From IMG/VR virus record IMGVR_UViG_3300043778_000063, positions 8,707-72,706 of that record: a DNA stretch of 64,000 nucleotides; one strand, 5' to 3'. Below, piece after piece: positions 25,645 to 58,249 of the stretch. Origin of the DNA: a virus. The notes below the pieces were generated by a model. That model was not told the DNA's origin, made no database searches, and saw only the letters and a list, made by a program, of their open reading frames with translations. Within the stretch, counting starts at the first letter, position 1, and each line of letters begins with the position of its first letter. The translations under genes were made by a program, and so were the position numbers.

Positions 25645-26385
25645 TCAGAACTCGACAGCGACGCCGGCGAGATACTTCGTCCCGACGGTCGACGTCACGC
25701 CGACCGGGCCACCGAACGTGACGCCTTTGTTTTGAAATACGGTCTCGACGTACTCGCGAACGGCAGAACCGTTGCTGAGTTGCTCCATCAGGTCGAACTC
25801 GATTTTTGGCGAGAACGACCAGACTTTGTTGGATCCGGCGCCGAGAAAGGCGACCGTGACGTCGTCCGCGCGGAAGCCTGCGCCAAAGCCGGCTTGAACG
25901 TTACTTGCAGTGACGCCGACCGGCAGCAACGGGAACGGGGCTACGCTGCTGAACGGATTCGGCAAGCTCAGCAGACCCAACGCGTTCTGGATGGTCGAAA
26001 CAGGCGTCCATATCAGTCCGGTACCCTCGAATGAGACCGGGCCCGAGACCGAGAAGCCAGCGTTGGCGCCGTTGAAATTAGTCGCGCTGACTTTGCCCTC
26101 GATCGCATAGGCGAACATGCTGCTTTTGCTGCCCCAGGCATAGCCGGCATTCAGGCCAACACCCGCCGTGGTCGTGGTCAGGCTGGCCGGGTTAACGCCA
26201 GGGACACTGGCGACCACCGGGCCGCCGCCGGCCTCGGTGAAGATGCCGGCGTAGAAGCCGGAAGTGCCGAACGGATAGCCGGTAAAGACGGGGGTTGCTG
26301 GCGCCTTGACGGCCATGTCCGCAGCAAGCGCGGGACCGGCCAGGAAAGCCGCGGCGATCGCCGCAATGCGGAGGAAGTTCTTCAT
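25645..26385 (-). CDS. Outer-membrane beta-barrel protein (Omp25/RopB-like)
   Basis: Signal peptide ..ALA|ADMAVKAP, SGFYAG, GLNAGY amphipathic strands, C-terminal Phe. Confidence 0.8.
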   Translation of the reverse strand: MKNFLRIAAIAAAFLAGPALAADMAVKAPATPVFTGYPFGTSGFYAGIFTEAGGGPVVASVPGVNPASLTTTTAGVGLNAGYAWGSKSSMFAYAIEGKVSATNFNGANAGFSVSGPVSFEGTGLIWTPVSTIQNALGLLSLPNPFSSVAPFPLLPVGVTASNVQAGFGAGFRADDVTVAFLGAGSNKVWSFSPKIEFDLMEQLSNGSAVREYVETVFQNKGVTFGGPVGVTSTVGTKYLAGVAVEF

Positions 26386-26502
26386 GGAGTGTCCTCTCAA
26401 GGGGTGACGGAATGCGCAGGAAGGTACGCGCCGACCACGTCAGGCCGAAAGAGGATTTACGGCGGCGCGCGTCAGATTATCTCCGACTGCGGCATTTATA
26501 CA

Positions 26503-26745
26503 TCACCGCCGTTCGCCGGTCTGTTCGCATCCGTAGCGGCCGCAGGGATGATAGCCAGCCTCGATAGCATCCTTGGACCACGATTGCGGGATCCAAAATC
26601 GCTGTTCCGAATCCAGCGATAGCGGCACACCGCGGACTTGAGCGCTGGTCGTGCAGCAATCCGGAGTTACCGAAAACATCACCATGCGTTCGGCCGCGGC
26701 CGCAGGAATCACCGAGGCCAGCAGCGCCGCAATGACCCGGTTCAT
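26503..26745 (-). CDS. Small secreted Cys-containing protein
   Basis: Signal peptide MNRVIAALLASVIPAAAA; CC..C..C. Confidence 0.55.
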   Translation of the reverse strand: MNRVIAALLASVIPAAAAERMVMFSVTPDCCTTSAQVRGVPLSLDSEQRFWIPQSWSKDAIEAGYHPCGRYGCEQTGERR

Positions 26746-27458
26746 GCGGCCGTCAGCGGCGCCGTGGGGGGAACGAGGAAGCTCGGCGGGGCTGTTGCCG
26801 AAGGCACAATGGGGCGGTCCGTGACCGGAACCGGCGGCTCCGGGCTGTCCTTGTGCGCGTCGGCGATGATGGCGGCGCCTGCGGTCGTCTGCGGGATGGC
26901 ATCGATGATTTTGGCGGCGACCACGTCGGGCGTCAGGCCGAACCGCTTGAGCACCCCGGGTATTGCCAGCGACGCCTGATTCGCCGCGCGCGCCAACATC
27001 GCGTTATCGACCTGCACGGACTTCCCGCTCATTCTGACGGCGCCATCGGAGATCAGCGACGCAGCGCGGTTCTGGAGGAACGTCGTCAGCGCGTTGCGAT
27101 GCCCCTGGTCGAGGTCGATATTCCACTTCGATTTCAGCACGGTTGCCATGTAGCCGACGAGCGCCAGGATCAGCGCATTGGCAACCGAGTCGATGTACGG
27201 CTCAAGCCAGCCGAAGGCGGAAAACTGGATGAGGCCACCGGAGGGCGGCGCCGGCGCCGAAATCAGCGCAACCTTGCCGCCATCATCCTTCTGCAGCTGC
27301 GCCTGTCCGATCGCCACCGGACCGCCCACTCGCTGGGACGCCACCACATCGGCCGTCGCCGGCATCGGCACGCCCTCCGGGTGGATGTTATTGAACTGCG
27401 CGGCCGCCGGCAGAACCAAGGCCAGCAGCATGGCCGGGACGATGAGAAGTCGGCGCAT
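26742..27458 (-). CDS. Holin-like membrane protein with N-terminal signal peptide
   Basis: Signal peptide, TM helix, then HRNALTTFL...IPGVLKRFGLTPDVVAAKI; next to endolysin. Confidence 0.55.
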   Translation of the reverse strand: MRRLLIVPAMLLALVLPAAAQFNNIHPEGVPMPATADVVASQRVGGPVAIGQAQLQKDDGGKVALISAPAPPSGGLIQFSAFGWLEPYIDSVANALILALVGYMATVLKSKWNIDLDQGHRNALTTFLQNRAASLISDGAVRMSGKSVQVDNAMLARAANQASLAIPGVLKRFGLTPDVVAAKIIDAIPQTTAGAAIIADAHKDSPEPPVPVTDRPIVPSATAPPSFLVPPTAPLTAA

Positions 27459-27467
27459 CAGGATCTC

Positions 27468-27671
27468 CTATTCGGGGAAAATTCTGTCTATCACGGCGCA
27501 GAAGGCGGCGTAAGCGTCTTTCAGCTCTTTCATGCCGTTCTCGAACTGCGCCGCAGCAGCGGGAACGCCCTCGCCGATGCCGTTGGTGGCGCAGTTGGCC
27601 GCGCGCGCCTTGGTCGCGTCGATCAGGCCATCCTTGACCGCCTGCAGCATCTCCGCCCGGGACAGGGTCAC
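27468..27671 (-). CDS. Hypothetical protein
   Basis: GTG start coupled to endolysin stop. Confidence 0.55.
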   Translation of the reverse strand: MTLSRAEMLQAVKDGLIDATKARAANCATNGIGEGVPAAAAQFENGMKELKDAYAAFCAVIDRIFPE

Positions 27672-28522
27672 GTCGAGGTCTTCGGCGCCGCTGGCTCTTC
27701 CTTCGGCGCGTCGAGCGCGGCCAGCGCTTCCTTGAGCGCGGCCACCGTCTCGGGCCCGGCGAAGTCGACCCTGAGGTTGTAGCTGCGCTGGAAATGCTCC
27801 ACCGCCTTTTTCGTCTTGTCTCCGTAGCTGCCATCGACGTGCAGCGGGGGTTCCCAGCCGAGCCGATTCAGTGCCGTCTGAATCCATTTGGTGTCGACGC
27901 CGGTCTCAGGCGCCGCGATGCCGGAATGGATCGGCGGCGCAATCGCTGCGCTCGGCAGCGCCAGCGACGGATCAATCTCGACCATCCGGCGGGCGACCGG
28001 GATGATGCCCAACTGCTCGTCCATCACGGTTGGATCATAAACGTGATCTCTCACGTATTTGCCAGGGGTTTGAATGTTCGTTCCTCCCCATAGATAGCTG
28101 GTGTGCTGATGATGCTCATCGCGCGGTCCAAACCCGTTAAAAAGTTCTCCATAGAAGCAGATCAATTCCCAGATCCAGTTGGGCGCGCCAACGCGATCAA
28201 GTCCATTCAGATGGTACGCAGCAATCGCCGAATCCGCCCACGTCCGGAAGGGTCCATTCTTCGGAACGTCCTTCGATATGCTGTTCAAGGGCCAACCTTG
28301 ACCTGCGTTTCTAGTGAAATCCGAACCGGATTCGCGCTCGAATAGCGTCGCCATGAAGACGATCGGCACGCCGGTCGCCACGCTCACGGACTGATACCGC
28401 GGTTTGAACCCGATCAACTTCATCGCGACGTGGTCGACCTCGGCGCGGCATTCCTTCCGGACCACCATCGCGGAGAGCAGTTGCGAATATTCCGGCTTCA
28501 GGATCTCGAAAGGATGACGCAT
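27668..28522 (-). CDS. Endolysin (lysozyme-family protein with C-terminal peptidoglycan-binding domain)
   Basis: RES, ELFNGFG, SYLWGGT, GKYVRDH catalytic motifs; IQTALNRLG..VDGSYGDKTKKAVEHFQ PG-binding-1. Confidence 0.9.
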   Translation of the reverse strand: MRHPFEILKPEYSQLLSAMVVRKECRAEVDHVAMKLIGFKPRYQSVSVATGVPIVFMATLFERESGSDFTRNAGQGWPLNSISKDVPKNGPFRTWADSAIAAYHLNGLDRVGAPNWIWELICFYGELFNGFGPRDEHHQHTSYLWGGTNIQTPGKYVRDHVYDPTVMDEQLGIIPVARRMVEIDPSLALPSAAIAPPIHSGIAAPETGVDTKWIQTALNRLGWEPPLHVDGSYGDKTKKAVEHFQRSYNLRVDFAGPETVAALKEALAALDAPKEEPAAPKTST

Positions 28523-28534
28523 CGATCCAACTCC

Positions 28535-29695
28535 TCAGTTCTGGGATTCCTTCGAGACGATGAAGTTCGATACGAACCCCGTCGGGTTGGCGACCATGAT
28601 AGCACCGTTGTACGACCGGATGTTGAGGCAATCGTTCAGATTGAGCCACATGCTGGCGCTGACTTTCGTGGTCTGCACGCCACCAGTGCCATTCTCCTCA
28701 TCCGCCTTGATGATGCCGCCGTTGACGTACAGCGACACGTAGAACACGGTATTCGGCGGCGCAGAGGGGAAATACAGCGTCGCGTCGGCATGGTACACAC
28801 CTGCGACATGCGGCGTGAAACAGCCTGTGGCCGGATTATAATCCCCGTTCAAATCGGTGTAGATCAGATCCGGCACGAGGAATTGCGGCGTCGGCGTCGC
28901 CGAGAGCGCGACCGCCTCTTGCCAGCCGACTGACGTCAACGTCGGACCGCCGAGCGTGACCGGGATTCCAGCCAGATAGCTCATGACGTCTTGGTTGAAA
29001 TACCCAGGCTGGTGACCCAACGTCCGGATCGTGAGCAGAGAGCAACTGGCGCCGACCGCTGGACAGAATATCGACGACGTCAGATTCTCCGGGACGGTCG
29101 AGTCGTTGTCCCCGTGCCAGATCTGGATCGGAACGCCTACAAAATTTGCTGCATTCAGATTCGGCGTGACTGAACTCTGGATCGCCGAAAATCCGGCCGC
29201 CGTCACGCCATATGCGCTGTATAGCGACGCCTGAAGCGACGGGAAGACAGCAGGGTCGGTCACGGGGAAAACTGCCGCGATCCGAGCGCACATCGAGGCC
29301 GGAGCATTGAAATTTTGCAAGCCTCCGCGCGATTGCGCATAGCAATTCGGTTTCGCCGCTAGCGAATAATTCGACGTGATAAACGCAGCGAATGGTCCCA
29401 ACTGCGCGGCGTTATAGCCGTAGTCGTCGAGCCCGCCATCGGCCCCAGGAATCCACATGCCGACCACGGTCTGGCAAAATGGCTGCTGCGATAGGCCGGC
29501 TATCAAAGGGAGTGGTGCGGCATATCCGAGGCCGCCATTTGACACCGGCCCGGTCGGCATGATCAGCGTCCATTGATTGCCCGTGCAGCCGGCTGCGGGC
29601 GTATTCATGAAATATGTGAACCCATTCCATGTCAGAGCATTTGCGGGAAGACATCCGATCGACAACAGGAGCAGTGCTGCTAATATTTTTTTCAC
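28535..29695 (-). CDS. Secreted alpha/beta-hydrolase (esterase) with C1q-like C-terminal domain
   Basis: Signal peptide; AQSRGG elbow, WHGDNDSTV, LGH triad; YNPATGCFTPHVAGVY C1q-like. Confidence 0.7.
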   Translation of the reverse strand: MKKILAALLLLSIGCLPANALTWNGFTYFMNTPAAGCTGNQWTLIMPTGPVSNGGLGYAAPLPLIAGLSQQPFCQTVVGMWIPGADGGLDDYGYNAAQLGPFAAFITSNYSLAAKPNCYAQSRGGLQNFNAPASMCARIAAVFPVTDPAVFPSLQASLYSAYGVTAAGFSAIQSSVTPNLNAANFVGVPIQIWHGDNDSTVPENLTSSIFCPAVGASCSLLTIRTLGHQPGYFNQDVMSYLAGIPVTLGGPTLTSVGWQEAVALSATPTPQFLVPDLIYTDLNGDYNPATGCFTPHVAGVYHADATLYFPSAPPNTVFYVSLYVNGGIIKADEENGTGGVQTTKVSASMWLNLNDCLNIRSYNGAIMVANPTGFVSNFIVSKESQN

Positions 29696-29707
29696 GTTGA
29701 TTCCTTG

Positions 29708-31798
29708 CTATGGTGAATAATGCTCAAGAACGTAGATTGATCCGACAGCCCCCGCTCCGCCAGGTTGGCCTGTAGATGCCGTGCCTGCAGCCCCTCCCGC
29801 GCCAACGCTATAGGAATAAGTCGCGCTCGGCGCATTGACTATCTTGCTGAAACATCCTCCTGCGCCACCTCCAGTTCCAGCTCCAGCGCCAGCAAGCGCC
29901 GTTCCGCCGCTGCCTCCTCCCCCTGAATTTGTGATCCCGGCCGTGCCTGCATTTCCCGGTGTCGAGATTGGACCACCGCCACTATAAAATCCGCTATCAC
30001 CTCCGATTCCAGCGTTTCCGGTTGTCCCGGTTCCCGGGCCGCCGGCTCCTCCTGTAAAATTCAGATCTCCTCCTGTGGCCGTACCGCCGTTGACCGCGGC
30101 GCCATTATTACCATTGCCTGCGCCACCGCCGTTTGCGGTCAAGAATGATGATCCAAATGTCGTGGCAGATCCTGCTGTGGCTGCAACTGTCGTTCCGGTT
30201 CCTCCGAACCCGCCGCCGCCGCCGCCGCCGCAGCCGCGAATCTCCAGCCACGATACGGCACCGTTGGCGGTCGGTGTCGTGTACGTTCCGGAAACAAATC
30301 CGCCTGTTCCGGTTGCTGTACCAGAGTTGAGAGCCGTGCTAACCGTGATCGGTCCGGTGCCCTTGATGGTGGTGGCGCTGGCAAATACTGCAGCCTGGCC
30401 GGCCGCTGGTGTGCCGCTGGTCGAGACGTTTCCTGATCCAGCTGGCGTTTGCCATGTGCCATCTCCGCGCCAGAAAGTGGATGAGGATGCGCTCGTTCCG
30501 CTATTCAAGTTCGTGACTGGCAGATTTCCGGTGACACCGCCATTGCCCGATGAGGCTAGATTCGCGGCCGACATGAACGAGCCAGAAACCGTCCCCGAAT
30601 TGATCTCCGATCCGGCAATCGACTTGTTCGTGAGCGTTTGCGTATCGGTCGTCCCAACGATCAACCCGCTTGCGGGGAAGGTCTGCGCGGTCCCGCTGAC
30701 CGTAAGAGCGGTGAATGCTCCCGTGCTCGGCGTTCCCGACCCGATCGGACCCGGCGTCGCGAAATTGGCGCCATTGATAAATGATGCGTTTAGATTCGCG
30801 ACCACTGTGGTCGACGCCACTGAGAATGGTGCGGTACCTGTTGCGAGGGTCGATGCGATCTGACCTGACGTCGTCATCGTACCCGTGATCGCTGGTGTGA
30901 TCATCGTTGGCGATGTATTGAGCACATAGCCGCCAGTCCCGGTTGGTGCGGTACCGTTGTTGTAAATGAGGCCTGCAATATTGAGGGTGCTGATGCCCTT
31001 GTCACCCCCGGTCGGCGATCCGATCGTGATGCCGCCGCTGGCATTCTGGCATAGTCCATTGGCCAATATCGCCGAGGCGATCGGTGTCGTCGCCACGCAA
31101 GCCTGGCTGCCCTGATGCCCGGACGAGATGTTCTCCGCCGCATAGATCCGATAAGATGCAATCGCCGTCGTCGTCAGACCCGCGCCGTTGTACGCCCATG
31201 AGTTGAACGATCCGACCTCGGTGCCCGATGTGATCGCGGTTGGACTCGCGTTGGTCCCGCCGTACGAAACCCCGGAGAACGTCGATGGCTGACCGAACGC
31301 GTTGAGTTGGATGCGGCCGACCACGCCATTCGCCGCTCCGACGTTCAATGCAGCACCCGCGATCGCCGCCGGCAACGTGGTGGCGTTCAGGTTGATGATC
31401 TGCTCGGCGGCAAATGTGTTCGTGGCGTTTATGACCGCACACGTCGCGCACGGGCCAACCCCGATCGGACCGACCGTTGATCCGTTGACCTGGAAGAAAA
31501 ATCCGGCAGCGGTATCCCAGACGTCTCCATTGATGGGTGATGTCGCAGGTACGCCAGGCGCAATATTGAACCCGGAACGCGATGCCGTTGATGGCGCCGT
31601 GGTCAACTCGCCGGTCATGATTCCGCCGGACGTCAAGACCGGAGGTGCTCCAAGATAATCTTGCTTCGATGCCCACTCCTCGTTCCATTGCGCTGTGGTT
31701 GGAACTTGCCCGTAAGTCCAGCCGGGGTTGCTCTGCGCCAGCGCGGCGCTCGGCAGGAGCGCCAGCAACGCGAAGAGGGCCGCTTTCAAATGGCGCAT
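29708..31798 (-). CDS. Glycine-rich tail fibre/appendage protein with signal peptide
   Basis: [11 protein letters not shown]-domain, [35 protein letters not shown], Gly-rich C-terminal domain. Confidence 0.8.
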
Positions 31799-31807
31799 CG
31801 ATTTCCC

Positions 31808-32680
31808 TCAGTTCTGGAACGGTGGCAGTTTCCACGCATCGACATTCGCCGTGGTCAGATCGGCGACATCCGACATCGCCTGCGCCGCCCATCGGTGAAT
31901 CGATTCGACCGTCTTCCTGTTGGCCTCTCGCGCCAGCATGAAGGCGTGATCGGCGGGTGATCTGGTCTTCGCCATCAGGCCAGGCCGGTCGGCATAGGCG
32001 GCCTCGGCTTGCTTCACCACCGCAGCCTGATCGGCGATCGGCTGATCAAGCGCTTTTGCTGCCGCCAGATCAGAGGCAATCACCGCGCCGAGCCCGGTCA
32101 GAGACTGCATCGCCGCTCCGATCAGTCCCGGCTGCTCGGCGGCCAACTTCATCTCAATTTTCTCTTGCTGGCTATTGAGAGCGGCCAACTTGTTCCGTTC
32201 ATTGTCAACCGCGCGCAGCGATTGCTCAACGGCTGCGGCATCCGCCACCTGTATGTCGGCGGCGCGAAACTCGGCGGCGCGCAGCTTCGCCGCCGGGATG
32301 ACTTTCTCGATCTGCGCTACCTCGGCCTCCTGGATCTGACCGATCAACGCCTGCTTCTTCGCCGCAAGAACCTGATCCGGTGTCGGGCCATCGTCCACGA
32401 TGACATAGTTCGGTCCGGTATCATCGACCGCGCCAGCAACAATGGCAGGAGCGATCGGCGGCGGGAACGGCGCGTGCGCTTTTTCCTTCGGCACGCCAGC
32501 GGCCTTGTCTGCAGCGACCGCAGCCATGTGAGCCTTCCAATCCGTCATTTCCTTGGCATAGGCTGCGACGTCCGCCTGGAACGTCGGGCCCACCTGAGAC
32601 TTCAGAATCTTCGCCGGCTCAGCGGCAAAGACCGTCGACGTGAAAAATATCGCGATGAGAAGCAGAGCTGCGCGTTTCAT
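31808..32680 (-). CDS. Putative tail-fibre assembly/accessory protein with signal peptide
   Basis: Coupled to fibre gene; MKRAALLLIAIFFTSTVFA|AEP; helical, ends VDAWKLPPF. Confidence 0.6.
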   Translation of the reverse strand: MKRAALLLIAIFFTSTVFAAEPAKILKSQVGPTFQADVAAYAKEMTDWKAHMAAVAADKAAGVPKEKAHAPFPPPIAPAIVAGAVDDTGPNYVIVDDGPTPDQVLAAKKQALIGQIQEAEVAQIEKVIPAAKLRAAEFRAADIQVADAAAVEQSLRAVDNERNKLAALNSQQEKIEMKLAAEQPGLIGAAMQSLTGLGAVIASDLAAAKALDQPIADQAAVVKQAEAAYADRPGLMAKTRSPADHAFMLAREANRKTVESIHRWAAQAMSDVADLTTANVDAWKLPPFQN

Positions 32681-33891
32681 AGTTTGATAATCCATATGCC
32701 GATCATGGCTCGAGGCGTGTTATTGGCCGGCGTGTTGAAAAGACCGTTACCGCCATCGGTGGCGCCGTTGACGACATGCGTGTGGTTGGCGCTCTCGGTG
32801 CTCGTCGTGAACGAATAGGCGTGCTGATGACGCGTGCTGGCGCCTGACGTGTTGACGTTCGAATTGTTGAAGCTACCTCCGCCAGCGACATTCGCACCAC
32901 CGCCGCCGAATCCCTCGACCGAGTGGAAATGATCCGGACTATCGTTTCCGGTCGTGCCGGATCCGGTATGCGTATGGGCGGCGCTCTCGATGCTGCTCGT
33001 GATGTTGATGTTGTGCGTGTGCGCCGGGAGTTCGCCGACAGTGTTGGTGTGAAAGACCTCGCCGATCAATGATAGATTGAAGTTCGGGCCGCCGCCGAAA
33101 ATGACCGGGACGCTATTCAGAACCCCTGTGCCCTGGTCGTTCCCCATCTGCATGGAGCCAGCCATCGAAAACACGGCGATTTGCTTGTTCGCTGCGTAAT
33201 CCGCTGCAGCATTGGCTCCTCGGCCGCCAGTGACCGGGCACTGCGTGTTCGAGCAATTATTCCACAGCAGAACGTACAGAAGTTGCGTCGTCGAGTTGGC
33301 CACTGTCGCACCGGACGACGCATTACCTATCGTAGTCGAGGCGTTCAGGTTGACCCATCCAGAGGGTACGGTCGTCCAGGTCCACGCGATCGAGCCGGTC
33401 TGATACGTGCTCGGCAGCGGCACCCAATTCGTCCCGCCAGTGTCCGGGTTCGAGGTGTTGTTGTCGGCGGTCGAAAGCCAGAAGTCACCTGGAACGATCG
33501 TAGATTGGAGAATGGCTCCCTTCGGGTATCCATTCGCGGCTCCGGTCGCAAACGTCGCGTCGTAGAATGTCGGGCCGCCTGCGGATGTCCACTGATCCCA
33601 TTGCGTGATCTGCCGCAGAATGCCGTTGAAGTCCTGCCCGAACGGCGCGCAGCCGCCGGCAGCGGCCGGCACGAAAGTGAGCGGCGGAAAACCATCCGTG
33701 AGCGAGGCCGAGCAATTCGTGATGCCGATCTGAGACGGCTGCGGAATCGATCGGATGTACGGCGTCGCCGCAAACGCGCCCCAGGTCAGCGCGAACTTTG
33801 GCGGGACATTGGCCTGCTGGATGGCGCCCGCACCGCTCGCGCCGAACAGCGCCAGAGCCGCGACAAAGGCTGCTATGATTCGGTTCTTCAT
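32677..33891 (-). CDS. Baseplate-attached tail fibre (collar domain, HxH tip) with signal peptide
   Basis: ASLTDGFPPLT..GQDFNGIL, GYPKGA, NNTSNPD N-domain; PSGWV collar; multiple HxH motifs. Confidence 0.85.
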   Translation of the reverse strand: MKNRIIAAFVAALALFGASGAGAIQQANVPPKFALTWGAFAATPYIRSIPQPSQIGITNCSASLTDGFPPLTFVPAAAGGCAPFGQDFNGILRQITQWDQWTSAGGPTFYDATFATGAANGYPKGAILQSTIVPGDFWLSTADNNTSNPDTGGTNWVPLPSTYQTGSIAWTWTTVPSGWVNLNASTTIGNASSGATVANSTTQLLYVLLWNNCSNTQCPVTGGRGANAAADYAANKQIAVFSMAGSMQMGNDQGTGVLNSVPVIFGGGPNFNLSLIGEVFHTNTVGELPAHTHNINITSSIESAAHTHTGSGTTGNDSPDHFHSVEGFGGGGANVAGGGSFNNSNVNTSGASTRHQHAYSFTTSTESANHTHVVNGATDGGNGLFNTPANNTPRAMIGIWIIKL

Positions 33892-33908
33892 GCGGTAATT
33901 CTCTCCCA

Positions 33909-34586
33909 TCATGACGGCGGAGCTGTGATGTTAATACCGACGCCAGCCGGATCGGGCAAGACGCCAGGGGTCTGCAGGATCGCGAGGTCGACCGGCGTAA
34001 GGGGAAAGCTGAACGTATAGGTCGCCGTCATGTTCTGATTGTCGGCGATGTAGGCGGTCCCGCGGCCGGGGAAAAGCTGCAGCAGGATGCTGTTCGTCGA
34101 TTGGATGGATCCGTCGGAGATGTTGCCCGCAGCTTTGGCCAGGATGAGCCGCCGAAAATCGGAGTCCTGCAGGATGAAATTGGAAACCGACGACGAGCCG
34201 CTGGCGAAGCTGCCCTGGTTGAACCCGGTCCAACTGTTCGCCTCATTGAACCCAAAGCTCGGGGTGAGACCAGAGAATTTCAGCACCCTGGTGACACCGA
34301 CGATCCTGCCCAGCACATCGAGACCGTAGCCGACCGCGGTCGTGATATCGACCTCATTCTCCAGGAACTGCTCGTAGAACTGCGTCAGGTCCATCGCCGC
34401 GTTGAACGACGTGATCAGACCAGTGATGATTGGACTGTTTGCGTATTGGCTGAGAACGATCGTCCATGGATCCCACGGCGAAAGTTCGCCGAGCGGACTC
34501 ACGCCGATGGAAAAAGTCCCAATCGCATTCGATCCTGGCGTGAAACCTGGAGCGAACCGGGGATAGGGCGGGCCCGTGTCGGTCAT
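33909..34586 (-). CDS. DUF2612 baseplate wedge protein
   Basis: [38 protein letters not shown]. Confidence 0.88.
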
Positions 34587-36448
34587 GTGTGCGAAACCAA
34601 AATGTTCGCCGCGGTGAGCTGCGGCACCTGATTCGCGTTGACCTGGATCACGATCTGATCGGCAGATGCCGCAGTGAATACTCCGTTGGTGGTGAGCGCC
34701 GCACCGCTCGACGTCGTGGTGTTGCTCGTCACGTAAACGCCAGCACCGCCGGGCGTGCCGCTGGTTTGGTTGACGATGATGGTATTGGACGGAACGCCGG
34801 TACCGGTCAGAACATTGCCGTTTACAATCACGCCGGTCACAGCCGTCACGGTCAAGTTAAAACCTGATCCCGTGCCCGTGAACGTCGCGCCAAATAGCGT
34901 CTGGGGTTGGTTGACCGTATAGACGCCGACGCCGCCCGGGGTGCCGCTGGTCTGGCCGGTGATATAGGTGGCATTCAGCGTGAGATTGAGCACGTCGAAC
35001 AGCGCATCATTCGTGATCAACGTCCCTGACGTCACCGCAGTGACCGTCAGATTATTCCCGGAAATATTCCCAACCACGACCGCATCGGATTCATTGGCCG
35101 ATCCGATACCGATCGCAGCGACCTGCGCCCATGTCCCCAACGCCGCCACAGCTGGGACGTACTGGATCGCGTATAACTGAGAATTGATCCGCGCCCGCGG
35201 AATCGTCGTCCCGGTGGTGGTGGTCGCCGAAGTCATCGGCTCGCTGGTGACGGTCTGCGCCACGCTGACCGAATAGGTGCCGATTCCTCCGGTCCCGGTG
35301 CCGAAACCGGTGATCGTCGTGTTGGCGACCAGATTGCCGGTGAGGTCATCGATCGTCTGGCCGATTGACAGCGTTCCGGAATTCACCGCGCTGACGGTAA
35401 GCGTCGTCCCCGCCACCGAGCCCGTGAAATTGGCCTGCAGGGATTGCCCCGAGAATGCTGCGAGGATCGCGCTCTGGATCTGGGTCTGGAATGTCGATGG
35501 GACCAGCGGGCCGTTCGCGACCACGATCTTGAACAGCACCTGAAGCGCTGGCGGGATCTCGTAGGTGATCTGGTACGGAACCGGCGCGGAATACAGCGGA
35601 TTCGAATCGTAGACCGTGACCGTGGTGTTTCCCACCATCGGCGAGCCCGGGCTCTTTTTGGACCAAATCGCCTGCGCCACGGCCGCTGGCGCGCCGCCGG
35701 CAACGCAGATGTACGTCGAATAGGCCGCGATCGAGACCCCGTTGATGACCACGGTCCCGTTCGTGGGATTGGCGACACCGTAATAGTCGAGAACCCCTGG
35801 CACCTCGGCGACGGCGCCGATGATGGCACCGACCGGGCCGAAACTGTTGCCGGCGACGCTATCCTGCCGCCGCGTTTCAAATGCCGCGCGGCTCTCGACG
35901 TTGCGTCCGATCGCGCCCGACAGCACCGTGGCGGAATCCCATCCGGGGATGAGCTGCGTCAGGGTCACCGCGGCAGGTACCGCCAGCGGGCCCGGCACCA
36001 CTGCGGCAAACGACAGCGTGATCGCCCCTCCGACTGGGATCGTGCCGGCCTGGACGCACTGATAGAGGTTGTTGTTGATGTCCTGGACCAGCGCGCCGAT
36101 CGGAATTATGACGCCTTGGGCGCCGTTGCAGATGATCTGGAGTGCGGTCGGTTCCGAGGGCTGCCGGGCGAAGCCGGGGATCAGCCGCCCCAGCGCATCC
36201 TGAAACCTGCCGGACGCATAGGCCGGATCGAACTGTTGAGCGTAATAGACCGCAGTCGAATACGTATTGACGACGATCGCGCCCCAGGACTGCGCCAACT
36301 GCCCCTGCGGTGTCGTGAGCCCGTAGTTGAGCGCGCTACCGAACGCGCCGCTGATGTCGAGTTGCACGCCGGCGAGAACGGACGGGCCCGATGGCGCCAG
36401 AAACCCGGCCGACGTCCATTGTATTTGGGGGACCGACGTTCCGGCCAT
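34583..36448 (-). CDS. Baseplate J-like protein with three inserted beta domains
   Basis: [35 protein letters not shown]. Confidence 0.9.
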
Positions 36449-45361: not shown

Positions 45362-45402
45362 TTCTATCTTGGATAGGAGGAAGCGAGCATTTCATTCCTG
45401 GG

Positions 45403-46722
45403 TCATGGACCAAATCCAGACGCAAATCCAGACGGGACAGGCTGTGTCAACTGAGAGGCCGAAAAGTTTGACGTTAGTTGGTCGCCCGTGGCCTCAATCA
45501 TAGCTATCGGATATCGCTTTCCGGTACCTAGCGGACCCGTGCTTACTCCGCCAACTCCAGTGGACGGGTTAGCTGATCCGTTACCGTTCCAAGATTGCGC
45601 CACGCCTGATCTAACTCGCCGAAACCAAGCCAAGTTAGCCGTAAAATCCTGACATTCCTGTATGATGTCGCCACCTGTCCACGTCGCCGCCGCTGCTAAT
45701 GTCGTTCCGTTTATTTCTATCGCGCCAGTGTCGAAGTATCCGATGCTGTTATTGTCTCCGGTCCCTGGCTGGAACGCGCCATTGTATTCGTTGGCGGTAT
45801 TGACCAATCCGACAATTAGAAGATTGTTGAAGGCGTCTGCCGAGATTTCCCAACAGTACTTTCCAGACGAGACGCCTGGGAACCCTCGCACTTGACGATT
45901 TCCAAAACCGGATAAATTAGTGATAGTTCGATTGCCATTCGAAAGCACACCCGATGATGCGATATCGATCGGACTGAATGTCAAAGGCGCCTGAATTTGG
46001 GTTCCAGGGTGCTTCATGACGCTGACTATTTGAGGCTCGGCAATCGTTGCTAAGGTATAATACCCGAGCGCCGTGAGGTGCACACAGTCCGATTGATAGT
46101 AGGTTGCGTTGCAAGCGCCAGCTTGCGTGGAAAACGCAGGGTTGGCAAAAAAATCCACGAGTGCGTCGGCACTAAGATCCGAGTTCCAATACGATCTGAT
46201 AAGCCCATTTAGGCTTATGATCGTCGGCATTTCCTGCGTCGTATCGTTGGAGTTATTTCTTGCAATCAAAGTGGCGATAGTTACACGCTGAAATCCCGCC
46301 GCCCGCGCATCTGCGATAATGCTACGTAAGGTCACGTAGATCGCTGAGGCGCTGGTACCGCTGTTGACATCATTTGTCCCGGCGAACAGAATTTCAACAT
46401 TAAGCGCCTTCGTCGCATCGAAATCGGAGACGTATTGCGATGGATAATTGGCTAAAATAGTCGCTGCGGTGATCCCGCTCACGCCATGGTTGAGCGTCGT
46501 GTAGGCGGGACCGTGAGGCAACAGGAACGAGACTTGATCTGGGTAATCGAATGGCGGCGAAACGAATAAACCCGCCGTTAAGCTGTCACCCACGTAAGTC
46601 AGTTTGACGCTCGATGGAAGCCCCGATCCACTCATGATAAGCAGACGACAGGCCCCGGTGCAGGCTCTGGTCTCCGACAGGAACGCCAGAGTTACAAATA
46701 GGGCGATCAGAATTTTCCTCAT
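45403..46722 (-). CDS. Secreted SGNH/GDSL hydrolase with SPRY/B30.2-like domain
   Basis: Signal peptide; GDSLT, GVSG, GTND, DCVH; SSGKYCWE..GDII..D..WF..PSGF. Confidence 0.85.
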   Translation of the reverse strand: MRKILIALFVTLAFLSETRACTGACRLLIMSGSGLPSSVKLTYVGDSLTAGLFVSPPFDYPDQVSFLLPHGPAYTTLNHGVSGITAATILANYPSQYVSDFDATKALNVEILFAGTNDVNSGTSASAIYVTLRSIIADARAAGFQRVTIATLIARNNSNDTTQEMPTIISLNGLIRSYWNSDLSADALVDFFANPAFSTQAGACNATYYQSDCVHLTALGYYTLATIAEPQIVSVMKHPGTQIQAPLTFSPIDIASSGVLSNGNRTITNLSGFGNRQVRGFPGVSSGKYCWEISADAFNNLLIVGLVNTANEYNGAFQPGTGDNNSIGYFDTGAIEINGTTLAAAATWTGGDIIQECQDFTANLAWFRRVRSGVAQSWNGNGSANPSTGVGGVSTGPLGTGKRYPIAMIEATGDQLTSNFSASQLTQPVPSGFASGFGP

Positions 46723-47570
46723 GGATCGCTCACATAGGGAGGTCGGTTTTTATATGGATTGTTCGCCGGAAGATTTGACCCGTTTTTCCCGTCATACCAA
46801 CTTTCCCACCCCTCCAGTTTAGCAACCTCGCTAGCCGTCAGAACCCTGTTGAAACAAAATGCTTGTTGGATGACGCCCGTGAATGGCGAGCCACCATTCG
46901 AGTTTGCCCCGATAGCACCTCCGGCAGTTCCGGTGGCTGGCGTGCTCAGCGTTGCTGTTTGGGTGACCCCGTCTGCAGTGACGGATGCGGCCGTTCCATT
47001 CTGATTCCACACGATCATTCGATCAACCGAACTCCACCCGAAGGTTGTGAAAAAATCGCTCGTAAAGAGGCCGGCGTCGATCGTGCTGCCTGAAACACGA
47101 AGCATTCTCCAACTAAGATTTGATCCATTGTAACCGTATCCAAACACGCCGACTGTGTTTGTCGTGGCATATGCTGCCAGAGCCAGCGATCCGGGGGACG
47201 CGCCGGAAGGAAACCCAGTTTGCGCAAACGAGAGAAATTGGCTCCCGTTGAAAGTAAGACCAGGTTTTCCGTTCCTGGCGGTAGTGCTATAACCGGGCTG
47301 AGCAGATCCAGTTACTTGCGTTGCCGCAATGCCAGATGCCTTATCAGACCATGATGAAACTGTCGTGCTGTTGAATATTATGCTTGGAAAATTCTGCGCG
47401 TCCCACCACGCTACGAGGGACGACCCAATGTTCAGCGGTGTCCACAGTTTATTGCCACTCATCAGCAACAACCGCCGCCCACTCTGCGCATCCGCCGATC
47501 CGAACCCAAGCGCCAGCAGCTCGGATACCGCCAGTGCGGCTACGACAGTGATGGAAGACCGCCGGCGCAT
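46719..47570 (-). CDS. Secreted LamG/concanavalin-like protein
   Basis: Signal ..SADA|Q; LVAWWDA..VSSWSDK..NGKPGL..NRVLT..KLEG..LPANNPYK. Confidence 0.75.
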   Translation of the reverse strand: MRRRSSITVVAALAVSELLALGFGSADAQSGRRLLLMSGNKLWTPLNIGSSLVAWWDAQNFPSIIFNSTTVSSWSDKASGIAATQVTGSAQPGYSTTARNGKPGLTFNGSQFLSFAQTGFPSGASPGSLALAAYATTNTVGVFGYGYNGSNLSWRMLRVSGSTIDAGLFTSDFFTTFGWSSVDRMIVWNQNGTAASVTADGVTQTATLSTPATGTAGGAIGANSNGGSPFTGVIQQAFCFNRVLTASEVAKLEGWESWYDGKNGSNLPANNPYKNRPPYVSDP

Positions 47571-47571
47571 C

Positions 47572-48174
47572 TCAATTCTCTTTGTAGGTTCGCAGGAAAT
47601 ACGAATGCTTTTCGCTGGCGATCGGCGTGTAGGCGCCGATCTCTTCCATGGCATAGATGGTCGCTTGCGGTTCTTGCGATGGAATCGGCTGCATGGTCGT
47701 CAGCATCAGACTCGAGCCGGAGCATTCCGAGAAATATTGCGCGGTGGCATCGTTCGTCGGCTGCCACGCCGAGCAGGTAAGATTCCCAAGATAGATGTTG
47801 GCGGCGAGGTCGGCGGCGTAGGGGCCCACGTAGGCGCTACCATCGACGAGGCCTGTCGTGGTCGGCTTGGCAGAATAGAGCCACAACGTCGACGTCCCCG
47901 GCTTGTTGGTGCCGTTCGAATAGATGAGCGCCTTGATCGTGAGCGCCTGACCGGCGGGAACGCTGTTGAGAACGATCGGCGACGCCACGGCGCTGCCACT
48001 ATTGTTCAGCGCGAATAGTTGATTCCCCGTGTATGGAGTCGTCCCGGCGAAGTGCGTCGTGCTCCCGAGCCCATTGTAGGCGGTCTGGGAAAACGCTGCC
48101 GAGGCGAACATGATCAGCCCGAGGACGACGTAGGCGACGGTCAGCCACGTTTTCAACGTTGATTTCGGTTTCAT
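47572..48174 (-). CDS. Secreted hypothetical (probable virion appendage) protein
   Basis: Signal ..ASAAFS|QTAY; beta-rich body. Confidence 0.65.
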   Translation of the reverse strand: MKPKSTLKTWLTVAYVVLGLIMFASAAFSQTAYNGLGSTTHFAGTTPYTGNQLFALNNSGSAVASPIVLNSVPAGQALTIKALIYSNGTNKPGTSTLWLYSAKPTTTGLVDGSAYVGPYAADLAANIYLGNLTCSAWQPTNDATAQYFSECSGSSLMLTTMQPIPSQEPQATIYAMEEIGAYTPIASEKHSYFLRTYKEN

Positions 48175-49082
48175 GTTTCGACTTCCGTTTTGCAGGGCGC
48201 GCTGTCCAAGGTCTTTGCGAGTCTTCGTTTCCGTTCTACGGCTTTGACCCAAGAAGCCCTGATCGTTATGCCTTCTGAGATTAAAACCCTACGAATTTCT
48301 CTGCGGCCAGCTCCATATTTCCTGACAATGAAATCGACGCTTTTGCCATCTAAGTATTCGGATACGATCAATTTTGCATCTGTTATTATAGATTTAGCCC
48401 TACTGCCCAATGGGTGAATTTTTATCCCGGCACCAATCACAATATTACGTATCGCATCATCATGGGTATGATATATTTTCTTGAGGGTGGCAGTCCCCTT
48501 ACCGGATGCATACAGTGCTATGATTTCTGATTTGATTTGATCCGAAGCGATATTTTCAAAACAATTGGACGGCTTCTTTCCTGTTCTTATGGCCGATATC
48601 TTAGTTCTGAATTCTGGCGAACGCTTTCCTGGACTGCCTTTTCCGCCGCGCTTCGCTGATGCAGCTTTTTCTCGGGCGGATGCTGACCATACGCGCTCCC
48701 GATTTGATTTGGCAGTTCTTTCCCGCTGATCTTTCGAAGGTGATCTTCTAGGGCTATTGGCTGACATTTTAGCCCTGGCTTCATCCGACTGTTTCGTGCC
48801 TAAACGGCTTCCGGCAATAAGGCATGAATTATAATTTGGCTTCAAAATATCGATAGCGCGCTGCTCAAACATCAATAAGTCTGATGGACGACATACCAAA
48901 AGTCGAATGAAGCTCAGATTCTCTAATCCATATTTGTTGCAAGCGCGTTGAAGTGCTCGGCTGTGATGAATGCCCCTCCGCAAATGGGATTTGTGCATGT
49001 ACCATCGCATATTGAAATTGACCGCACTTCCGACGTAGAATCCGCCAGATGGTGATTTGATCTGGTAAATTCCAGAATTCAT
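48171..49082 (-). CDS. GIY-YIG homing endonuclease with NUMOD3-like repeats
   Basis: SGIYQI..FYVGSA..RW..H..L; GTKQSDEARAKMS; low GC. Confidence 0.92.
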   Translation of the reverse strand: MNSGIYQIKSPSGGFYVGSAVNFNMRWYMHKSHLRRGIHHSRALQRACNKYGLENLSFIRLLVCRPSDLLMFEQRAIDILKPNYNSCLIAGSRLGTKQSDEARAKMSANSPRRSPSKDQRERTAKSNRERVWSASAREKAASAKRGGKGSPGKRSPEFRTKISAIRTGKKPSNCFENIASDQIKSEIIALYASGKGTATLKKIYHTHDDAIRNIVIGAGIKIHPLGSRAKSIITDAKLIVSEYLDGKSVDFIVRKYGAGRREIRRVLISEGITIRASWVKAVERKRRLAKTLDSAPCKTEVET

Positions 49083-56786: not shown

Positions 56787-56981
56787 TTAGCCGCCTCGAA
56801 GTGCCTGATCGACAACTTCGGGAGCGTACGCGATGATGGCGAGAAGGACTCTTGCATGCATCGTGGGTTCGCGACGATGCTGCTCCCATTCGCGTATCGT
56901 AGCCAGATTCAGGCTGAAGCGCTTCGCGAATTGCTCTTGCGTCAGATTGAGGGAAATTCGGATGGCGCGGGCGTCGATCAT
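56787..56981 (-). CDS. HigA-like HTH antitoxin (orphan)
   Basis: IDARAIR..LTQEQFAKRF..TIREWEQHRREP..ARVLL.II..PEVV. Confidence 0.85.
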   Translation of the reverse strand: MIDARAIRISLNLTQEQFAKRFSLNLATIREWEQHRREPTMHARVLLAIIAYAPEVVDQALRGG

Positions 56982-58249
56982 GTCGTCATGTCCATCATTG
57001 CCCGCTCGATCGCGGCCCACTGCAATTCGACGGCAGAATCCTCCACCTGGCATTCCGATCCGGCTCGACCATCGCCGACAATCGTTAAATGGTTGCCGGA
57101 CAGTTGCGTCATGATTCCGTCGAAAGGCTCTCCCTTGAAAACGCCCGGGGTCATCAACGGTACATAAAAATACCCGCAACTCAATTCCTTCATCTCCTCG
57201 GATTCGATGAGGTCGATTCCTTCTTGCGTCCAAACAACCAGGCTGTTTTGCAAGAACGGAGAATTGAATTTCGCATTCGTCCCGGTCGTCCCAATGATGT
57301 CGTTTTTTTTATGATCCTCTGCATTCACCGGCGTGTGCTTCTTGAGAAGTTGAATCCCATTGAAGGTTTCTGCCGCTTTTTCCAATTCTTCGCCCGGGCA
57401 ATAGAGATTGTAGATTTTGTCCGGATCCAATCCCAGCTTGTGGGTCTGGGTAGCGTCATCCCAGCCGGGAATTTCTCGACCGACATAGGGCCTGATCTGC
57501 TCTTTGCTCAGATTGGCAATGGCAACCCGCATGCGGCCATCACGGTCGAAGGATCTGACGCTGTCCCGGTCCATGGCGATGACGAACGCCGAATCAGTCG
57601 CGCCGAGCTTCTTTCCGGCCCCGCCGCAGTCCTCGCACTTGCAGCCAGGGCCTGCGAGCTCACCAGTCCCGCCGCAGGTCGGGCAAGCGTCTGCCGCACG
57701 GCCGCGTTCGGCCTCTTCATCGGCAAGTTTCGACCATGCAACCAGCCCGTCGCGCGCGCCGCCCAGGTCATCGCCAAGCTTGTTCTTAAGCATCGACTCG
57801 ACTGCGGGGTGGATCGGCCGCGGCAGCTCGCTCAGCGGAAACCAGCCAGCGCCGTTGTGCTCGTCGTTCAGTTGCGGCCAGAATTTCTTCGCTACTGATT
57901 GGGCGAAGGTGTGGAACGCCATCCCGGTCGGGGTCACCTTCTGATCGAGGACCTTGAAGCTCTTGGGGTCCGTGTCGACGCCCATCTCTTCCTTGGCCTC
58001 GCGCGCGGCGCCGGCCTCTGGTGTCTCGCCCTCCTCGACGCCGCCGCCTGGCAGCGACCAATGACCCACGAAATTGTCTTTCCCCGGCGTCCCGGTGCGC
58101 CGCAACAGCAGGATATCGCCGTCCGGTGCAACAAACAGCACGCCGGCCGCATGTTTTGTGATCCCAGATGCATCAAAAGCGGTCTTGCGGCGGAGGCCGG
58201 CGGGGATGGCAGCGTTCGGGGCGAGTGAGAGCATCATCGCCTCTATCAC
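56978..58249 (-). CDS. NUDIX hydrolase + CxxCxGxG finger + DUF2213 prohead protease fusion
   Basis: GGGVEEGETPEAGAAREAKEEMG Nudix box; CPTCGGTG/CEDCGGAG; PYVGREIP..ELSCGY..NHLTIV..GRAG. Confidence 0.88.
   Translation of the reverse strand: MIEAMMLSLAPNAAIPAGLRRKTAFDASGITKHAAGVLFVAPDGDILLLRRTGTPGKDNFVGHWSLPGGGVEEGETPEAGAAREAKEEMGVDTDPKSFKVLDQKVTPTGMAFHTFAQSVAKKFWPQLNDEHNGAGWFPLSELPRPIHPAVESMLKNKLGDDLGGARDGLVAWSKLADEEAERGRAADACPTCGGTGELAGPGCKCEDCGGAGKKLGATDSAFVIAMDRDSVRSFDRDGRMRVAIANLSKEQIRPYVGREIPGWDDATQTHKLGLDPDKIYNLYCPGEELEKAAETFNGIQLLKKHTPVNAEDHKKNDIIGTTGTNAKFNSPFLQNSLVVWTQEGIDLIESEEMKELSCGYFYVPLMTPGVFKGEPFDGIMTQLSGNHLTIVGDGRAGSECQVEDSAVELQWAAIERAMMDMTT

Follow-up and report, generated by a model that had tools for sequence, protein, structure and literature searches.

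In textbook accounts, tailed phages assemble their virions entirely within the cytoplasm, a reducing compartment. Proteins that they are known to export include the Sec-exported or SAR endolysins fOg44 Lys44, P1 Lyz, and phage 21 R21, with disulfides involved in P1 Lyz; SAR domains are the uncleaved signal anchors of some endolysins. Lambda Lom and Bor, T5 Llp, and phi80 Cor each have a signal peptide or a lipoprotein signal and are encoded near tail fiber genes, and T5 Llp and lambda Lom/Bor are exported proteins acting in the host envelope. In filamentous phages, the receptor-binding protein pIII is made with a signal peptide that is cleaved off, acquires its disulfides through DsbA, and joins the particle outside the cytoplasm. 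The sheath of Agrobacterium phage Milano is a disulfide-cross-linked virion protein without a leader. A siphovirus tail tube is likewise cross-linked by disulfides, which stabilize this part of the virion, and the excerpted text of PMC13576161 states that no phage disulfide machinery has been described, host DsbA or spontaneous oxidation being assumed (PMC13576161). P1 Lyz is also mentioned in an excerpt of PMC3556154. Our literature searches retrieved no description of leader-bearing, disulfide-type tail fibers.

Here, we analyzed a window of 64,000 nucleotides within a 72.7-kb myovirus record, in which four consecutive late genes are predicted to encode proteins with Sec-type leaders. The described relatives of the first of these proteins, F1, are gp31 of Bcep781, the vB_E177 fiber, and the phiAO1 and Orisa03 homologues, all of phrog_12796, which have the docking domain in common with F1 (36 to 49% identity over ~135 to 195 residues). 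The genes of the leaderless Bcep781-like fibers likewise come straight after baseplate J and DUF2612, but these fibers have Met at the mature start of F1, no leader, and Gly and Val/Ile/Thr in the columns of the F1 Cys pair. The other systems compare as follows. (i) Exported endolysins are late tailed-phage proteins that host Sec places in the periplasm before lysis, but they are nonvirion lysis enzymes, whereas here the adsorption apparatus is predicted to be exported and the endolysin is leaderless. (ii) pIII works in a way similar to the route proposed below for F1, with no relation in sequence or fold; filamentous phages extrude through the envelope without lysis, whereas the window phage is contractile tailed and has a lytic cassette. 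(iii) Lom/Bor, Llp, and Cor are not fiber homologues and have no baseplate-docking domain. (iv) The tail tube and Milano sheath proteins have no signal peptide and are oxidized after assembly, whereas the window proteins appear to be directed to the Dsb compartment in advance.

Results

The late genes in this region are all on the minus strand, and ORF reading gave the consecutive order J, DUF2612, F1, 295-aa ORF, F2, and 386-aa protein, followed by the endolysin. The baseplate J-like wedge protein (621 aa; 34583..36448; Pfam Baseplate_J, 2e-10; phrog_6, 8.8e-35) and the DUF2612 baseplate/structural protein (225 aa; 33909..34586; Pfam DUF2612, 1.5e-47; phrog_587) precede F1 (411 aa; 32677..33912), which is the sole baseplate-docking fiber gene in the 72.7-kb record. 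The next ORF has a full extent of 295 aa (31808-32695) and encodes, from its sixth codon, a helix-rich protein of 290 aa (31808..32680). It is followed by F2, a fiber-like protein of 696 aa with a Gly-rich C-terminal part (29708..31798), by a 386-aa protein with a C1q-like C-terminal domain and a possible alpha/beta-hydrolase N-domain (28535..29695), and by an endolysin-like protein with PG_binding_1 (27668..28522; Pfam, 1e-12; phrog_1493). Near-identical records of 71.6 to 73.2 kb are present in other samples, which argues for an active lineage.

The first-pass annotation had assigned Sec-type leaders to the four genes between baseplate and endolysin, and we found the ORFs and leaders as it had described them; the translations also bore out its mature Cys counts of 4 in F1, 0 in the 295-aa protein, 6 in F2, and 8 in the 386-aa protein. 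The F1 leader (33823..33912) comprises 30 residues, or 23 from a second ATG at 33891, and consists of a basic n-region, an Ala/Gly-rich h-region, and an A-G-A site, with a cut before Ile31 (ATC) predicted from our leader rule and the homologue alignment. The predicted leaders of the 295-aa ORF (counted from the sixth codon), F2, and the 386-aa protein have 19, 21, and 20 residues, respectively. Real starts downstream of the leaders would have undone this assignment, but the upstream starts carry SD sites or ATGA overlaps in all four genes. The F1 ATG at 33912 shares an ATGA with the stop of DUF2612, and the second ATG is preceded 9 nt upstream by GGGAGAG; the ATG at 32680 of the 295-aa ORF overlaps the F1 stop (ATGA); the F2 ATG is preceded by GAGGGA; and AAGGA lies 6 nt upstream of the GTG start of the 386-aa ORF, with no SD-type site before its downstream ATG (residue 30). 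The leader genes are translationally coupled to the baseplate genes, and we found no excess of promoters or terminators in the window that would separate the two groups. Since Ile31 is encoded by ATC and there is no in-frame start or SD nearby, a leaderless F1 isoform with an intact N terminus cannot be made here.

Leaders were called with our own rule-based test (basic n-region, uncharged hydrophobic h-region, small residues at -3/-1), which is not a dedicated predictor and in its lenient form flags ~15 of the 95 ORFs of the record. The rule called leaders in the four proteins and in three ORFs downstream of the endolysin, whereas baseplate J, DUF2612, and the endolysin were negative. The earlier view that the pattern is specific to the fiber region consequently holds toward the baseplate side, where J and DUF2612 are leaderless, but not in full, given the three further leader ORFs and the F2-type leaders that are common in relatives beside a leaderless F1. 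In 118 non-redundant related loci, the same rule flagged genes upstream of F1 in 0 to 13% per position, and the gene directly after F1 in 21/25 cases after a leader-bearing F1 versus 13/68 after a leaderless F1. The leader pattern around F1 exceeds chance.

Of the three additional ORFs, one encodes a leader-bearing 238-aa protein that also has an internal hydrophobic stretch; this neighbor of the lysis cassette (26742..27458, minus strand; phrog_17576, unknown function) has leader-bearing homologues in loci L098, L153, and L178. An 80-aa protein combines a leader with 4 mature Cys (26503..26745, minus strand). The third is a 251-aa outer-membrane-protein-like ORF without a family match (25645..26400, minus strand; leader from the ATG at 26385), which is probably cargo outside the fiber module and may be of the Lom/Bor/Llp/Cor kind.

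That F1 is a baseplate-docking fiber, as first proposed, was corroborated by its place after J and DUF2612 and by the phrog_12796 profile (tail fiber, 8e-27), which aligns F1 residues 33 to 220 with profile positions 3 to 187. The synteny J-DUF2612-F1 is kept in nearly all of >200 related loci, and part of the N-domain matches the N-terminal part of a solved tailspike, 24qi (E, 1.4e-4). Unlike its phrog_12796 relatives, F1 does not begin at the docking domain but has the 30-residue extension ahead of it. A total of 141 phage records match F1 in tblastn, and among the 30 matches listed, alignments start at residue 32 or later. The statement in the first-pass annotation that homologues begin at about the predicted mature start proved accurate for the four cultured-phage homologues inspected (vB_E177, Bcep781, phiAO1, and Orisa03), in all of which Met1 falls at F1 residue 30 to 32; more broadly, Met1 occupies the +1 column in 30 of 31 leaderless homologues in the alignment. 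In 83 leader-bearing F1 homologues, the cleavage site is nearly invariant (-3, A in 76 and V in 5, 81/83; -1, A in 75, G in 6, and S in 1, 82/83), while the remainder of the leader varies; these leaders have ordinary Leu-rich h-regions with frequent Pro at -4 to -6. The +1 Met is kept in 34 of the 83 and replaced in 49. The docking domain is the best-conserved part of leader-bearing F1, and ORFs with leader features are kept in homologues down to ~40% identity while the leader sequence diverges.

The alignments also answered whether leaders and Cys pairs co-occur. Among 238 non-redundant F1 N-domains, the pair is present in 104/113 leader forms versus 1/125 leaderless forms: the remaining 9 leader forms have no pair, and the leaderless forms divide into 123 without the pair, 1 with it, and 1 with a single Cys. 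The pair consists of Cys67 and Cys88 in the docking domain (33649..33714), columns that hold Gly and Val/Ile/Thr in leaderless F1; an AF2 monomer model has a pLDDT of 77.5, and the pairing of the two residues is predicted from this both-or-neither column pattern. As for Cys220 and Cys225 (CxxxxC; 33238..33255), Cys225 is common to both groups (81/82 in the Cys-pair group, 29/32 in the others), and position 220 is Cys in 78/82 of the Cys-pair group and Phe in 25/32 of the others; by these counts, a second Cys was added beside an otherwise lone Cys225 in the Cys-pair group. Even mature Cys numbers were observed in 93/105 leader forms of F1 versus 58/129 leaderless forms and in 53/56 complete leader forms of F2; leaderless F2 have 0, 0, 1, 1, 1, 2, 2, and 4. 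A control comparison showed no Cys gain in DUF2612 and J of leader-type loci. The nine F1 with leader but no pair and two F2 with leader and 0 Cys indicate that disulfides cannot be the sole reason for export.

The leader state of the 295-aa protein equals that of F1 in 16/16 unique loci (5 with, 11 without). Its homologues occur in 15/30 loci with a window-like F1 C terminus versus 0/106 loci in which only the N-domain is alike. A gene directly after the fiber gene that varies with the fiber C-terminal part is what is expected of a tail fiber chaperone, and the protein is a candidate fiber partner or chaperone on these grounds; it has no match in Pfam, PHROG, or NCBIfam and hence no homology to a described chaperone family. 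Of the unique members of the F2 N-domain family, 68 carry a leader and 10 do not, one of the latter being cut. F2 has an Atlas lead to Mtd_N/PTL_trimer of high score, no PHROG or Pfam match, and an N-domain without a counterpart in 50,697 cultured-phage records. A leader-bearing F2 stands beside a leaderless F1 in 34 unique loci, so that export of a fiber-like protein is compatible with a docking fiber that stays in the cytoplasm, which leaves room for a nonvirion role of F2.

The label "esterase-C1q" for the 386-aa protein stood in part. Its esterase half is a weak Atlas lead, of a score below that of F2, and Pfam gave no alpha/beta hydrolase match in the N-terminal 250 residues of the window protein; a distant relative, P0175, scores above threshold for Hydrolase_4 and Peptidase_S9. 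Its C1q half falls below the Pfam cutoff in the window protein (18.3 versus 23.7 bits), but the homologues P0154 (25.1) and P0155 (27.9) pass. P0154 has a leader, and P0155 and P0156 start at the mature N terminus of the window protein. A lipoprotein signal was considered for the S-I-G-C of the window protein and rejected, as P0154 has no lipobox and the leaderless homologues align after A-N-A.

Each of the four families thus also has leaderless members, whose Met1 corresponds to the predicted mature start. Since these families are nonhomologous and each has both forms, at least four independent gains of leaders are implied for the module. Within F1, leader and Cys states are strongly clade structured, and the well-supported branches of the tree force at least 3 state changes, with no more than these 3 forced; an independent-pairs test is without power at this number, and Fisher values ignore relatedness. 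The combination of predicted leader and Cys pair reaches well beyond the window and is found in many relatives.

Discussion

As judged from their sequences, the leaders of F1, the 295-aa protein, F2, and the 386-aa protein are very probably real, conserved, cleavable looking, and tied to disulfide-type Cys patterns. The proposal that such fibers are exported and folded with disulfides in an oxidizing compartment has gained strong comparative support: the conserved AxA junction, the leader-bound Cys pairs, the even Cys numbers, and the agreement of the partner leader with that of F1 make export and periplasmic disulfide folding of the leader-bearing fibers a well-supported prediction. Under the pathway that we propose, the four proteins would form a distal adsorption module, synthesized late, each with a cleavable Sec signal peptide, and exported to the periplasm, where signal peptidase I would cut at the AxA site and the host Dsb system would oxidize the proteins, with Cys67-Cys88 and Cys220-Cys225 as the F1 pairs. 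Capsid, tail, and baseplate would be built fiberless in the cytoplasm. The absence of a leader in the endolysin leads us to expect a large-hole holin, which would open the inner membrane for this enzyme so that the compartments mix, and the N-terminal docking domain of mature F1 would then attach to the baseplate, so that the particle is finished at lysis or immediately before it. Joining after lysis may be inefficient owing to rapid dilution. The selective gain is likely Dsb access for Cys-rich, environmentally stable fibers.

The part of this pathway that invites most debate is the destination of the exported proteins. We lean slightly toward their being the virion's own fibers, which join after the membrane breach, because F1 is the sole docking fiber, its docking domain is kept, its mature N terminus equals the leaderless Met1, and the endolysin is leaderless. 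An unlikely alternative is that they are nonvirion factors in the envelope of infected cells or lysogens that cover or alter the receptor, shut out superinfecting phages, or stop progeny from adhering to debris. The frequency of F2-type leaders beside a leaderless F1 (the 34 loci), the absence of the F2 N-domain from cultured-phage records, the OMP-like cargo gene nearby, and a 386-aa protein that possibly joins a hydrolase to a C1q-type binding domain, suiting receptor modification, would all fit such a role. It is harder to reconcile with F1: the sole docking fiber cannot be made without its leader, and a phage whose only fiber misses the particle would not infect, while the near-identical records speak for an active lineage. 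Moreover, the docking domain is best conserved in precisely the leader forms, the predicted mature end coincides with Met1 of virion fibers, and the leader genes are coupled to the baseplate genes without a separating excess of promoters or terminators.

The two destinations could be combined if part of each fiber escaped export or started internally and built virions in the cytoplasm, leaving a second job to the exported part. An internal start is conceivable in the 34 of 83 leader-bearing F1 that keep the old Met at +1, but Met is replaced in the other 49, and the window has ATC there with no SD or start nearby; a cytoplasmic F1 pool would also have four unpaired Cys, and the even Cys numbers point to selection on the oxidized form, so that we hold two pools to be rather improbable. 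Still less probable are uncleaved, SAR-like signal anchors that would keep the fibers tethered to the inner membrane, on its periplasmic side, until depolarization. Ala, Gly, and Ser abound in the window F1 h-region, as they do in SAR domains, but the Leu-rich h-regions and the Pro at -4 to -6 of the homologues, together with the nearly invariant small-x-small site at the domain junction, form a cleavage signature, and a retained hydrophobic N terminus of 20 to 30 residues would sit on the docking end; a SAR domain was rejected for F1 on account of this family-wide conserved site. Finally, the leaders could be an artifact, with true starts downstream and untranslated or chance hydrophobic stretches ahead of them. 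Gene callers do disagree, as the 386-aa protein begins at residue 30 in one public call and P0102 and P0007 have the Cys pair with a truncated or absent leader. This explanation is already largely refuted and scarcely credible, given the SD sites or ATGA overlaps at the upstream starts, the lack of an alternative F1 start near the mature end, and the persistence of leader features to ~40% identity despite diverging leader sequences.

We consider the chances evenly balanced that, as a whole, a widespread soil myovirus group (Alphaproteobacteria phages; Acidobacteriota by one MAG record) completes its virions outside the cytoplasm, with fibers and partner Sec exported, cut by signal peptidase, oxidized by Dsb, and added between holin action and outer-membrane rupture. 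If so, this would be a new step in Caudoviricetes assembly with host Sec and Dsb as assembly factors of tailed phages, infectivity would depend on both, and the adsorption module as a whole would have switched compartments repeatedly in evolution. The export route would also explain Cys-rich fibers in soil phages, and the source of virion-protein disulfides bears on the statement in the excerpted text of PMC13576161 that no phage machinery has been described. In practical terms, annotation pipelines that drop signal-peptide proteins as nonstructural would miss such receptor-binding proteins, and recombinant production of leader-type fibers would need periplasmic expression. Related modules are also found in culturable lysogens, e.g., in Bradyrhizobium and Rhizobium records (L004 and L016).

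Four consecutive genes of the fiber module encode leader-bearing proteins

The source record comprises 72,706 bases, is linear, and is 94% complete according to CheckV; near-identical records of 71,585 and 73,218 bases are known elsewhere. The window contains a full myovirus structural set, namely, major head protein, head protease, sheath, tube-like protein, tape measure, baseplate hub and wedge, the J-like wedge protein J (Pfam, 2e-10), and the baseplate/structural protein DUF2612 (Pfam, 1.5e-47), all encoded on the minus strand. On the same strand, the first gene after DUF2612 encodes the baseplate-docking tail fiber F1 (32677 to 33912; 411 amino acids), of which the whole record holds a single copy. 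It is followed by a 295-residue protein, a candidate F1 partner or chaperone (31808 to 32695), the fiber-like protein F2 (29708 to 31798; 696 amino acids), and a C1q-tailed 386-residue protein, a possible hydrolase (28535 to 29695), located between F2 and an endolysin-like protein with a PG_binding_1 domain (27668 to 28522). Three ORFs of 238, 80, and 251 amino acids lie beyond the endolysin. A promoter and terminator scan gave counts inside the range of shuffled sequences and has little bearing on operon structure.

F1, the 295-residue protein, F2, and the 386-residue protein all begin with the leader (a predicted Sec-type N-terminal signal peptide) quoted for them in the first-pass annotation, and the 4, 0, 6, and 8 cysteines that it counted in the respective mature parts were confirmed on reading the ORFs. 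In all four genes the leader-including start carries the translation signals: F1 and the 295-residue gene start in ATGA overlaps with the preceding gene (DUF2612 and F1, respectively), the ATG of F2 is preceded by GAGGGA, and the GTG of the 386-residue gene is preceded by AAGGA, a type of site that its downstream ATG lacks. Leaders were scored with a rule of our own that requires (i) a net positive charge, followed by (ii) at least 8 uncharged hydrophobic residues and (iii) small residues at positions -3 and -1. The rule was positive for the four proteins and the three ORFs beyond the endolysin and found no leader in J, DUF2612, or the endolysin. In a lenient form, in which several starts were tried, it flagged 15 of the 95 ORFs of the whole record, several of them weakly, so that the rule alone proves little and the weight rests on comparison. 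Across 118 non-redundant loci, leaders were flagged upstream of F1 in 0 to 13% of cases per gene position, and the gene directly after a leader-bearing F1 was flagged in 21 of 25 cases.

F1 is related to docking fibers of cultured phages

The initial description of F1 as an otherwise normal baseplate-docking fiber is borne out by profile searches, in which residues 33 to 220 match positions 3 to 187 of phrog_12796 (8e-27), annotated as 'tail fiber protein'. By tblastn, F1 matched 141 cultured-phage records; none of the alignments in the 30 listed rows starts before residue 32. The first-pass annotation also placed the start of homologues near the predicted mature N terminus, and this holds for vB_E177, Bcep781, phiAO1, and Orisa03, in which the annotated fiber gene begins 0 to 3 codons before the match and is located downstream of J and a DUF2612-type gene. 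In addition, the F1 family profile matches the N-terminal part of the solved Acinetobacter-phage tailspike 24qi (E value of 1.4e-4). The AF2 monomer of F1 has a pLDDT of 77.5 and gave no Foldseek match in the PDB at an E value of ≤0.001. By these sequence relationships, F1 is a genuine docking fiber with an added leader.

Leader and cysteine pair co-occur in F1

A search over 5.8 billion proteins was made with F1, and the best 120 matches plus the query were classed by the presence of a leader and of cysteines at F1 columns 67 and 88, the Cys pair of the docking domain. Both features were present in 85 sequences and neither in 31. Two leaderless sequences have both cysteines, one with a truncated leader and one starting at the junction (the predicted cut between leader and mature chain); two have a leader without these cysteines, and one leaderless sequence has a single one. 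The set was then enlarged by 66 genome, 80 metagenome, and 80 IMG/VR loci, which resulted in 238 F1 N-domains after removal of duplicates. The co-occurrence proposed for checking at the outset was upheld: 104 N-domains have leader and pair, and 123 have neither, the exceptions being 9 with a leader but no pair, 1 leaderless with the pair, and 1 leaderless with one cysteine. These counts exclude sequences of fewer than 140 residues, identical N-domains, 10 locus matches unclassifiable by the rule (by eye, 8 leaderless, 1 with a leader, and 1 cut), and 6 proteins with ambiguous N termini (by eye, all with the Cys pair and a leader, either full or truncated).

Cys225 is common to both groups (81/82 in the Cys-pair group and 29/32 in the others), whereas position 220 is Cys in 78/82 of the former and Phe in 25/32 of the latter; the exported forms thus appear to partner a lone cysteine. 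An even number of mature cysteines occurs in 93/105 leader forms versus 58/129 leaderless forms, and neither DUF2612 nor J, used as controls, gains cysteines at leader-type loci. Leader and Cys states follow clades in a FastTree phylogeny of the N-domain built with the Cys columns removed. On this tree the leader changes 11 times, with only 3 changes forced by well-supported branches, and a tree-based independent-pairs test, with 3 pairs on starred branches, has no power. The p-values of Fisher tests of the association ignore the relatedness of the sequences, and we do not claim statistically independent coevolution.

The other proteins of the module also occur in both forms

Homologues of the 295-residue protein were found only beside F1 proteins with a window-like C-terminal part (15/30 loci versus 0/106 with only the N-domain alike), a distribution that matches the behavior of fiber-specific chaperones or adaptors. 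Among its 16 unique versions, 5 have a leader, all beside leader-bearing F1, and the remaining 11, all beside leaderless F1, begin where the mature chain would. Prediction of a complex of three copies of F1 residues 200 to 411 with residues 20 to 290 of the 295-residue protein gave scores of 0.03 and 0.00, from which no conclusion is drawn either way. Neither this protein nor F2 has a match in Pfam, NCBIfam, or PHROGs.

Counted over unique cases, the conserved N-domain of F2 comes immediately after a leader in 68 and immediately after the start Met in 10, including one interrupted by a contig end. These 10 leaderless F2 are all found beside leaderless F1, and leader-bearing F1 is accompanied by leader-bearing F2 in 33/33 cases. 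Complete leader-bearing F2 proteins have up to 20 cysteines, in even number in 53 of 56; two leader-bearing F2 have none. Against cultured phages, the F2 N-domain gave one weak partial match only. For the 386-residue protein, we found a leader-bearing relative (P0154; 42% identity) and two leaderless relatives (P0155 and P0156) that start at its mature N terminus; C1q is above the Pfam cutoff in two relatives. A lipoprotein reading of its leader was considered and dropped on homologue comparison. Four unrelated families of one module thus each occur in leader-bearing and leaderless forms.

Other arrangements of the F2 N-domain exist among the relatives (loci L099, L103, L112, L181, and L184 and loci L124, L126, L131, L139, L142, L144, L146, and L148). 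Some have two consecutive leader-bearing F2-type genes; in others, a gene upstream of F1 encodes a short protein that combines a leader with the F2 N-domain. It seems that the exported F2 N-domain can be reused as a module.

Processing site and alternative explanations

Alignment of 83 leader and 31 leaderless F1 forms revealed a junction that looks like a signal-peptidase site. In the leader forms, position -3 is Ala in 76 and Val in 5, position -1 is Ala in 75, Gly in 6, and Ser in 1, position -2 is variable, and Pro is common at positions -4 to -6; it is with this putative site that the rival reading of the leader as an uncleaved signal anchor has to be reconciled. For 30 of the 31 leaderless forms, the +1 column holds Met1, so that predicted processed F1 would share the N terminus of cytoplasmic fibers, which fits a docking end needing exactness. 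Among the leader forms, Met is retained at +1 in 34 and replaced in 49. The rival reading of the pattern as an artefact of mis-called starts would have to account for the translation signals at the leader-including starts.

Another rival explanation supposes two fiber pools, one cytoplasmic and one exported. In the window, the +1 codon of F1 is ATC and there is no in-frame start nearby, so that a leaderless isoform with an intact N terminus is impossible. The exported proteins might also have a non-virion role in the envelope. They are probably the virion's own fibers, because F1 is encoded only once in the record, because it keeps the conserved docking domain and an exact mature end and is translationally coupled to the baseplate genes, and because the near-identical records argue for a living lineage.

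Proposed export and assembly of the adsorption module

The best-supported reading of these comparisons is that the distal adsorption module would undergo Sec export, cleavage, and Dsb oxidation. The 9 F1 with a leader but no Cys pair and the 2 F2 with a leader but no cysteine are a limit of the comparison. A leaderless endolysin needs a holin that makes large lesions, and such a holin would thus be required here. After these lesions and before rupture of the outer membrane, particles and periplasmic fibers would be in one compartment, and fiber attachment would be a final, spontaneous step. In T4, fiber attachment is classically the last, spontaneous assembly step. On the boldest reading, the final assembly step of a tailed phage would occur outside the cytoplasm, which would be a new kind of step.

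By descent, leaderless docking fibers are closest to F1, whereas by mode of action the module is closest to Sec-exported or SAR endolysins and to pIII of filamentous phages. Within the full texts and terms searched, no description of Sec-exported tail fibers in tailed phages was found, and according to PMC13576161 no machinery of phages for disulfide formation has been described.

Other features of the window and related loci

J (34583 to 36448, minus strand) has a long C-terminal extension past its Pfam domain (residues about 335 to 621) with three similar Gly/Thr-rich repeats, which matches phrog_38233, labeled tail fiber (8.8e-9). A single ORF at 56978 to 58249 (minus strand) combines a NUDIX/MutT-like N-terminal part (residues 20 to 157; phrog_1198, 7.4e-24) with a head maturation protease part (residues 224 to 408; phrog_2229, 4e-80). 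Between the tail and head genes (45400 to 49000), the G+C content drops to 0.54 to 0.55 compared with about 0.60; this stretch includes an ORF at 47572 to 48252 (minus strand; 226 amino acids) with a leader-like N terminus and no PHROG match and may be inserted cargo.

At the expected spanin position after the endolysin, two minus-strand ORFs encode leader-bearing proteins with no lipobox: an 80-residue protein with 4 cysteines (26503 to 26745) and a 238-residue protein with an internal hydrophobic stretch (26742 to 27458), homologues of which recur at related loci. The 251-residue ORF (25645 to 26400, minus strand), with a classic leader, an outer-membrane-protein-like composition, and no family match, probably represents prophage-expressed cargo. 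The N terminus of its product is similar to the porin leaders of Bradyrhizobium-type bacteria, a hint at the host.

Leader-bearing, Cys-pair F1-like genes are also found at four places on one contig of an Alphaproteobacteria MAG (L008 to L011) in the absence of J or DUF2612. One of them (L009:2870-11219) belongs to a small element that also encodes a primase/helicase-like protein (phrog_906, 1.1e-31) and a terminase-large-subunit-like protein (phrog_2, 3.9e-19), and from its gene content this element looks like a phage satellite that would bring its own exported fiber.
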